A DNA stretch of 64,000 nucleotides from Rozella allomycis CSF55 (lineage: Eukaryota): NCBI GenBank assembly GCA_000442015.1, contig KE561038.1, forward strand, positions 1-64,000, given 5' to 3'. The notes beneath the pieces are model-generated. The model had not been told where the DNA came from. It made no database searches and saw nothing but the letters and a program-made list of their open reading frames with translations. Positions 29,665 to 30,159 of this stretch are shown here, piece by piece. Every line of letters starts with the position of its first letter. Position 1 is the stretch's first letter. The translations under genes were made by a program, and so were the position numbers.

Positions 29665-30159
29665 ATGTTTGCTTTTGGTAAAGTTGCAATTGATCCCCGT
29701 GAAATATTTTTCTCGTCAAGTCTATCATTGGCGTTCGTGAACATAAAACCTCTGGTTCCCGGTCACGTATTGGTGGTTCCCAAAAGAAGCGTTGAGCGAT
29801 TTTCGAGCTTAGAAATCAAAGAAGTTCACGACTTGTTTGAATCAGTGCAAAAAGTAAGTCGAGTAATAGAAAAGGTATACTCAGCAACTTCGATGACTAT
29901 CGCTATTCAAGTAAGACTTTTTTTGATAAAATATCTGGACGGATTGGATGCTGGTCAAACCGTTTCACATGTTCACGTTCACATTGTGCCAAGAGTTAAA
30001 GGCGATTGGCCCAACAATGACAAAATTTATGACGATGTACTTTTAATTTTTTACTTTTCTTAGCTAAAAAACAAAGGTTTGGACGATGAACATCGCGTTG
30101 CCAGAACAATTGATGAAATGGAGCTCGAAGCAATACTTTTAAAAAAGCATTTCGAATAG
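29665..30159 (+). CDS. FHIT: Bis(5'-adenosyl)-triphosphatase, FHIT/Hnt2
   Basis: [46 protein letters not shown]. Confidence 0.92.

Follow-up and report, generated by a model that had tools for sequence, protein, structure and literature searches.

Origin and possible splicing at TG of a 27-nt insert in the FHIT gene of Rozella allomycis

The 27-nt insert in the FHIT gene

In the analysed window of 64,000 nt from Rozella allomycis CSF55 (contig KE561038.1), a gene of the FHIT type carries 27 nt between the codons for Q and DG. The insert begins with GTAAG and ends with TG. The locus raises two questions: whether the insert is an intron by origin, and whether it is spliced at TG or kept in the mRNA as nine codons. 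The features of the gene are given with the evidence for each, in window positions.

29665–30159 (+): FHIT-type HIT hydrolase gene, from ATG to the TAG stop (30157–30159); Pfam HIT, PF01230, E 2.9e-22
29665–29910 (+): exon 1, of which the last codon encodes the invariant Q; translation and homologue alignment
29911–29937 (+): 27-nt GT...TG insert, almost certainly an intron by descent, present as nine residues in the deposited model; sequence, alignment, intron statistics and environmental loci
29922–29928 (+): TTTGATA, putative branch-point region, with the central A at 29926, 11 nt from the 3' end; word enrichment
29938–30036 (+): exon 2, with the catalytic histidine triad; translation and homologue alignment
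30037–30063 (+): canonical 27-nt GT–AG intron at the place of the vertebrate exon 8/9 junction; fish isoforms in the alignment
30064–30159 (+): exon 3, including the stop codon; translation and homologue alignment

The best named matches of the gene are bis(5'-adenosyl)-triphosphatases. The read-through translation of 29665–30036 is 100% identical, at full length, to the deposited protein P0001 (155 aa, 'bis-triphosphatase [Rozella allomycis CSF55]'), and the next best database match is only 56% identical. A Rozella FHIT entry derived from a transcript was absent from the database. In the P0001 model the 27 nt are kept as coding sequence, which places the nine residues VRLFLIKYL after Q and before DG. 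The first-pass annotation had named these nine residues beside the active site as the alternative to splicing, and this is exactly what the deposited model holds. The HVHVHIV motif of the HIT family is present, and 27 of 27 invariant columns are common with 17 FHIT homologues. The intact columns therefore argue against an old pseudogene.

The insert is GTAAGACTTTTTTTGATAAAATATCTG (GTAAG...CTG), with ATT CAA upstream and GAC GGA downstream. Its AT fraction is 0.78, it is in frame, and it contains no stop codon. In the computed translation, removal of the insert gives a contiguous QDG in the FHIT product. The earlier description, an AT-rich GT...TG insert of 27 nt within QDG with a GTAAG donor, was correct in every detail.

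Intron positions in FHIT relatives

QDG is contiguous in all 17 homologues from animals, fungi, plants and other sources, in agreement with what had been said of FHIT proteins, and the nine extra residues are found in the Rozella model alone. All 80 metagenome loci encoding relatives were examined. The motif [DN]G..[AS]GQ.[VI].H.H.H is present on the matched strand in 69 loci and absent from the other 11. Among the 69 motif-bearing loci, the Q–DG boundary is contiguous in 65 and carries a GT–AG intron in 4, and an in-frame insert is found in none. The four introns are located at Q|GAC GG in phase 0 and contain stop codons. Their lengths are 34 nt (L017), 63 nt (L022 and L036) and 102 nt (L070), and they end with CAG (L017, L022 and L070) or TAG. 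The end of the upstream exon in L017 (...ATC GCA ATT CAA|GTA) is near-identical to that of Rozella.

The Q|DG intron of L017 occupies positions 1776–1809 of that locus, and the alignment suggests several short introns in this environmental gene. The source of L017 may be a short-intron relative, usable as a comparator.

Human FHIT has an exon 7 of 30 bp. According to the primers in Table 2 of PMC3262564, the primer pair for human FHIT exon 6 spans 147 bp and ends, in the sense direction, with the codons for ...FSMQ. Judging from these primers, human exon 6 ends at the Q83 codon, so that human intron 6 matches the position of the Rozella insert. The exon-skipping fish FHIT isoforms P0040 and P0042 place the vertebrate exon 8/9 border at the position of the second Rozella intron (30037–30063). 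According to the sequence comparison, both interruptions of the Rozella FHIT gene lie at what appear to be old intron positions.

The GT–AG introns at Q|DG elsewhere (the four environmental loci, and human intron 6 as judged from the primers) have the same position, the same phase 0 and the same GT start as the Rozella insert. The environmental introns end with CAG or TAG and contain stop codons, whereas the Rozella copy ends with CTG and is stop-free. The difference between CTG and the CAG of the relatives is one base, A to T. From these alignments, 29911–29937 is almost certainly an intron by descent, corresponding to the ancient spliceosomal intron which interrupts Q|DG in phase 0 in other eukaryotes. 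The intronic origin proposed by the first-pass annotation is thus borne out by the four environmental GT–AG introns at the same phase-0 position.

The introns of the window and the TG end

From ORF continuity and a codon-usage score, 96 canonical GT–AG intron candidates were collected in the 64-kb window. The length is 26–28 nt in 62 of the 96 candidates and 25–32 nt in 87. Under stricter rules, the shortest solution is 26–32 nt for 40 of 43 donors, and none is found at 33–44 nt. Twenty-seven solutions at 45–113 nt show a flat spread like noise, and several of them enclose a real short intron. The insert, with its 27 nt, falls in the 26–28 nt peak and has the typical intron length that had been claimed for it. 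The 5' site of the insert, GTAAGA, scores 7.25; 87 canonical introns of the window average 6.78 (sd 1.60). The AT fraction of 0.78 compares with a mean of 0.74. About 30 sites with equally high scores are present in 47 kb of ORF sequence, and a GTA-type 5' site alone is weak evidence.

A lineage-specific coding insertion, which was never an intron, would also leave nine codons between Q and DG. The insert is in frame and stop-free. Among coding windows, its codon score of 0.29 ranks at the 18th percentile, inside the coding range, but this value does not discriminate. Against such an insertion, GTAAG starts exactly at the codon boundary that bears an intron in four other lineages, the length is the modal intron length, the composition is intron-like, and an invariant motif is interrupted. 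We regard this explanation as exceedingly improbable.

Compared with the shuffled expectation, the words TGAA, TTGA, TGAT, TTGAT, TTTGA and GATAA are enriched 2–3 times in the 87 introns, with about 3-fold enrichment for TTGAT, TTTGA and GATAA. The insert contains TTTGATAA, which holds TTTGA, TTGAT and GATAA, and the TTTGATA stretch is a putative branch-point region. TTTGATA itself is present in 2 of the 87 canonical introns. The distance from TTGA[AT] to the 3' end is 4–19 nt in the canonical introns, and this spread rules out a fixed branch-to-3' distance as a general rule. The earlier suggestion that the 3' ends are picked mainly by distance was not upheld for the same reason.

The canonical candidates are highly uniform. 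The donor is GTAA or GTAT, and the acceptor is TAG in 56 of 87, AAG in 23 and CAG in 3. They have no clear pyrimidine tract, and the words TTGA[AT] and TGAA are enriched.

A 30-nt stretch in the Nop16 ORF, GTAATTTTTTAATTGTTTACAATATTTTAG (26463–26492, +), has an AT fraction of 0.89, ends with TAG, is located within an open frame and has the best 5' score of the window (9.3). It is likely a canonical multiple-of-three intron hidden from ORF reading. Similar hidden intron candidates are located at 60505–60530 (−) and 36502–36527 (+).

The 3' end of the FHIT insert was compared with the possible alternatives. A single AG is present within the insert (29914–29915), as part of GTAAG. The next AG 3' of the insert is at 29992–29993, 56 nt downstream and past HVHVH, as the first-pass annotation had noticed, and splicing to this AG would remove the histidine triad. 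When the cut is shifted by one base to the right (TA..GG), the mRNA is identical; when it is shifted by one base to the left (AG..CT), the codon becomes CAG, which still encodes Q. Among these three cuts, only 29911–29937 starts with GT. The AG which ends U2-type introns is absent in each case (TG as read, and GG or CT after the shifts). The sole canonical GT..AG pair near the insert, 29875–29915 (41 nt), breaks the frame and loses the HIT motif, and it was rejected. A U12-type intron was also rejected. The consensus of the U12-type 5' site is [AG]TATCCTT, and the 5' end of the insert, GTAAGACT, is unlike it.

A second candidate GT...TG intron is located in the LETM1 gene of the window.

35338–35366 (+): 29-nt candidate GT...TG intron in LETM1, ending with TCTG; joins the frame 34816–35352 to the EF-hand frame 35298–35711

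The LETM1 gene (33831–35711, +) needs a frame change between 34816–35352 and 35298–35711, and the latter frame has an EF-hand match. Removal of the 29 nt GTAAATTTCGTAATTTGATATTTTCTCTG links both frames. The only GT..AG links are 47, 53, 56 and 62 nt long, and no credible intron of the window has such a length. The 33 nt after the TG (NVEEPKDSEGK), which the longer GT..AG introns would drop, have a codon score of 6.38. This ranks among the highest 2.2% of coding windows, and the AT fraction of the 33 nt, 0.58, is lower than that of 96% of the introns. An AG is present 7 nt after the TG, and its use leads to a stop after 11 codons. The DNA contig X1 record 7 (34695–35835) has 0 differences from the window, and the T of the LETM1 candidate is thereby confirmed. 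According to these results, the LETM1 stretch is probably a TG intron. Apart from TG, 10 of 14 positions are alike in the 3' tails of both candidates, TTTGATAAAATATCTG and TTTGATATTTTCTCTG. This likeness was noticed post hoc, and the same level is reached in 18 of 3741 pairs of canonical introns.

Scans of the window for junctions that require TG detected LETM1 only. Junctions that seemed unexplained at first, at 17799, 14553, 20604, 13259–13360, 17100 and 53341, were resolved as canonical introns of 26–34 nt or as gene ends. At 53341 and at 51550–51587, TG and AG are 3–6 nt apart. The first-pass annotation had counted three TG cases in about 100 introns, including LETM1 and a PIBF1-like gene. 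The LETM1 case stands, in that the 29-nt GT..TG stretch is better than the 47–62-nt GT..AG stretches. The PIBF1-like gene was not located; a Pfam search at E values up to 1 gave no name to any of the 17 unassigned ORFs. The window thus holds at most two TG candidates against about 87–96 canonical candidates.

Two other places in the window were noted. In DcpS (51550–51587, −), the donor GTATTT is followed by TG at 32 nt and CAG at 38 nt; both are in frame and two codons apart, the TG version is within the usual intron length range, and the AG version is outside it. This site is a possible TG-AG tandem. Between the ORFs 31676–31930 and 31487–31642, the obvious 34-nt GT..AG intron (31643–31676, −) gives the wrong frame, and a micro-exon or another non-canonical end is possible.

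Removal at TG, retention or a sequence difference

TG acceptors are known in other organisms. According to the excerpts of the human survey considered here (Szafranski et al. 2007, PMC2374985), TG 3' sites occur in 36 genes, about 0.02% of introns; they are never the sole site, and an AG is always within 28 nt. They have a pyrimidine at −3 and a purine at +1, and disease mutations from AG to TG activate other AGs. The survey proposes that AG is required for intron definition before step 1, and that TG is selectable in step 2. The Rozella candidates share the GT and TG ends, the ordinary 5' site, the pyrimidine at −3 and the purine at +1 with these human sites (CTG|G in FHIT and CTG|A in LETM1). 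The LETM1 candidate also resembles the human TG-AG tandems in having an AG 7 nt after TG. Unlike the human sites described in the excerpts, the FHIT insert would have TG as its sole acceptor, with the next AG at 56 nt rather than within 28 nt, and it is known here from DNA alone. The Rozella candidates are 27–29 nt long, compared with hundreds to thousands of nucleotides in the human TG cases.

In Drosophila melanogaster, 23 GT–TG introns among 60,223 are given in Table 3 of PMC4528330; 22 of the 23 have a similar alternative canonical splice, and 19 of the 23 are supported by RNA-seq. The splice pair is the same as in Rozella, whereas Rozella would have 1–2 cases in the roughly 90–100 introns of the window, and FHIT has no alternative splice. 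In the fungus Ganoderma, 22 GT–TG introns are found among about 92,100 (PMC11590231 Table 1). A sole TG acceptor is found in none of the human cases as excerpted and in possibly 1 of the 23 fly cases as tabulated; further sole-TG cases may be given in File S4 of PMC4528330 or in the additional files of PMC2374985. For Rozella, our literature search detected no publication dealing with TG introns or with the use of nuclear splice sites. TG acceptors are of a known kind, and what would be new is the setting, with TG as the only acceptor of an ultra-short intron whose position in a conserved gene is ancient.

Our preferred reading, to which we give about an even chance on the sequence evidence, is that the Rozella spliceosome still removes 29911–29937 at TG. 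The GTAAGA 5' site and the TTTGATA-type branch region would be recognised in the 27-nt intron. In the second catalytic step, the intron would be released at the G of TG, located about 11 nt after the branch A. An intron of 27 nt may be defined by its 5' site, its branch region and its length. Going by spliceosome structures, U at −2 may still be able to pair with the branch adenosine and might for this reason be tolerated. After splicing at TG, QDG would be unbroken and the FHIT protein normal. In that case, the deposited VRLFLIKYL model would be an annotation artefact, as expected for a multiple-of-three, stop-free intron. In work on canonical introns that are invisible to ORF reading (multiple of three and stop-free), the situation is similar, and the Rozella insert is likewise read as protein in the deposited model. 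Unlike those canonical introns, the insert has a non-AG end, which is an extra reason for a gene caller to miss it.

Several points weigh against removal at TG. The TG acceptors of human and fly are nearly always beside an AG, whereas the next AG of FHIT is 56 nt away. The usual frequency is about 0.02–0.04% of introns according to the tables considered (PMC11590231 Table 1; PMC4528330), so the prior is low. Retention would not be punished by the reading frame, since the insert keeps the frame and has no stop. The C at −3 is rare in the canonical introns of the window, with 3 of 87 (T 56, A 23 and G 5).

A wider proposal is made only tentatively: Rozella, with introns of 26–32 nt, might routinely accept TG as a sole and constitutive 3' site in about 1–2% of introns, with no AG nearby. 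Under this proposal, AG recognition before the first step (a U2AF35-type check) would be relaxed or lost in this sister lineage of microsporidia, and the second step would take a G at a suitable distance behind a TTTGATA-type branch region. The rate of TG use in Rozella would possibly be 25–100 times that of other eukaryotes.

If TG is used, the insert is a natural sole non-AG acceptor in a U2-type intron, in a host that sits between the intron-rich fungi and the microsporidia with their reduced spliceosome, and the choice of the 3' end in a 27-nt intron becomes directly testable. The public models of FHIT, and probably of other genes, would then include residues that do not belong to the proteins, and gene prediction in this lineage would have to accept GT–TG introns.

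A rather unlikely explanation is that splicing has been lost: the CAG acceptor changed to CTG, and removal was abolished or is now a trace event, with the 27 nt kept in the mRNA and VRLFLIKYL in the protein. In this case the protein is probably impaired, so that the locus would represent early gene loss or an exonised intron. A single base separates CTG from the CAG of L017, L022 and L070. The length is a multiple of three with no stop, so the frame stays open on retention, and no AG is present within 56 nt. FHIT is not known to be essential in model organisms, and this was counted in favour of a loss of splicing. A sole TG is non-functional in the best-studied systems, as far as the excerpts of PMC2374985 go. 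On the other hand, all the invariant residues of the family are intact, and an insert at this boundary is tolerated in 0 of the 69 related loci and in 0 of the 17 homologues. In LETM1, the TG-ended stretch must be removed to reach the EF-hand frame. A weak argument against retention comes from the predicted structure, in which the nine hydrophobic residues adjoin the nucleotide-binding loop in the sole low-confidence part. The AF2 model of P0001 has a mean pLDDT of 84.6, and the values are below 50 at residues 85–97 (the insert and the following loop). Such low values are expected for any insert found in one row of an alignment, and they carry little weight. If the 27 nt are retained, the locus shows cleanly how one substituted base can make coding sequence out of an intron or set off the decay of a conserved gene. 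The public FHIT model very probably contains 27 nt that are untranslated or damaging.

Short introns have been described in Rozella and its relatives. According to the passages of PMC6349667 considered here, the S23 gene of Rozella has two putative introns of about 30 nt, and short microsporidian introns are poorly spliced (below 20%). The length of about 30 nt of the two S23 introns is like the 26–28 nt peak of the window, and non-AG ends are not mentioned in these passages. By analogy, the poor splicing of short microsporidian introns would fit a leaky FHIT intron.

The T at 29936 may also be a consensus error of the assembly, or it may belong to one allele while the other haplotype has a normal CAG. 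Four runs were compared with positions 20001–40000 of the window; X1 and X4 are DNA contigs from different coded studies, and X12 is RNA. The RNA run X12 gave four matches of 18–33 nt over this range, and the run X11 gave no match. X1 record 5 (27947–33208) spans the FHIT site with 10 other letters in 5232 nt and a sole gap of 30 nt at 27987. X4 record 18 (29345–37611) also spans the site, with 28 other letters in 8267 nt and no gap. Because the contigs of both runs cross the site ungapped, the 27 nt are present in the DNA of X1 and X4. None of the 40 listed of the 243 differing letters, all 40 from the higher-depth region, lies in the FHIT region.

Over the 20 kb, the X1 contigs differ from the window at 196 places and the X4 contigs at 156. 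The differences are mostly transitions, clustered at 24–26.7 kb and common to both runs, and the window holds 12 single Ns. From these differences and Ns, variation or error at the 0.2–1% level is therefore real, which speaks for an error or a second allele at 29936. Against it, X1 record 5 and X4 record 18 have so few differences that an affected base at this very place is unlikely a priori. Position 29936 is a called T and no N, and the equivalent T of LETM1 is confirmed by X1 record 7. A protein with L (CTG) at this codon is on record from two contigs, which are possibly not independent. Taken together, an error or a second allele is improbable. All the remaining explanations, even when combined, are highly improbable.

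Three other regions of the window differ from the DNA runs or contain repeats. At 23968–26683, about 30 substitutions and small indels (about 1%, mostly transitions) are found; at these places the contigs of both runs have the same sequence, different from that of the window. This cluster looks like a second haplotype or a strain difference rather than random error. In an intron of an acyltransferase-like gene (27969–28026, −), the reference has an extra 30 nt with an N at 28016, and both DNA runs are without these 30 nt (27987). When these are left out, the GT..AG stretch shrinks from 58 nt to an ordinary intron of 28 nt, and the extra 30 nt are probably an assembly duplication. The region 21485–21681, which belongs to the gene upstream of 22049, has two copies of the intron-like 27-mer GTAATATAATTATCCAAATTGTATTAG (at 21497 and 21655) and an N at 21536, and an X4 contig skips 158 nt between 21485 and 21644. 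This repeat is a tandem duplication or an assembly artefact.
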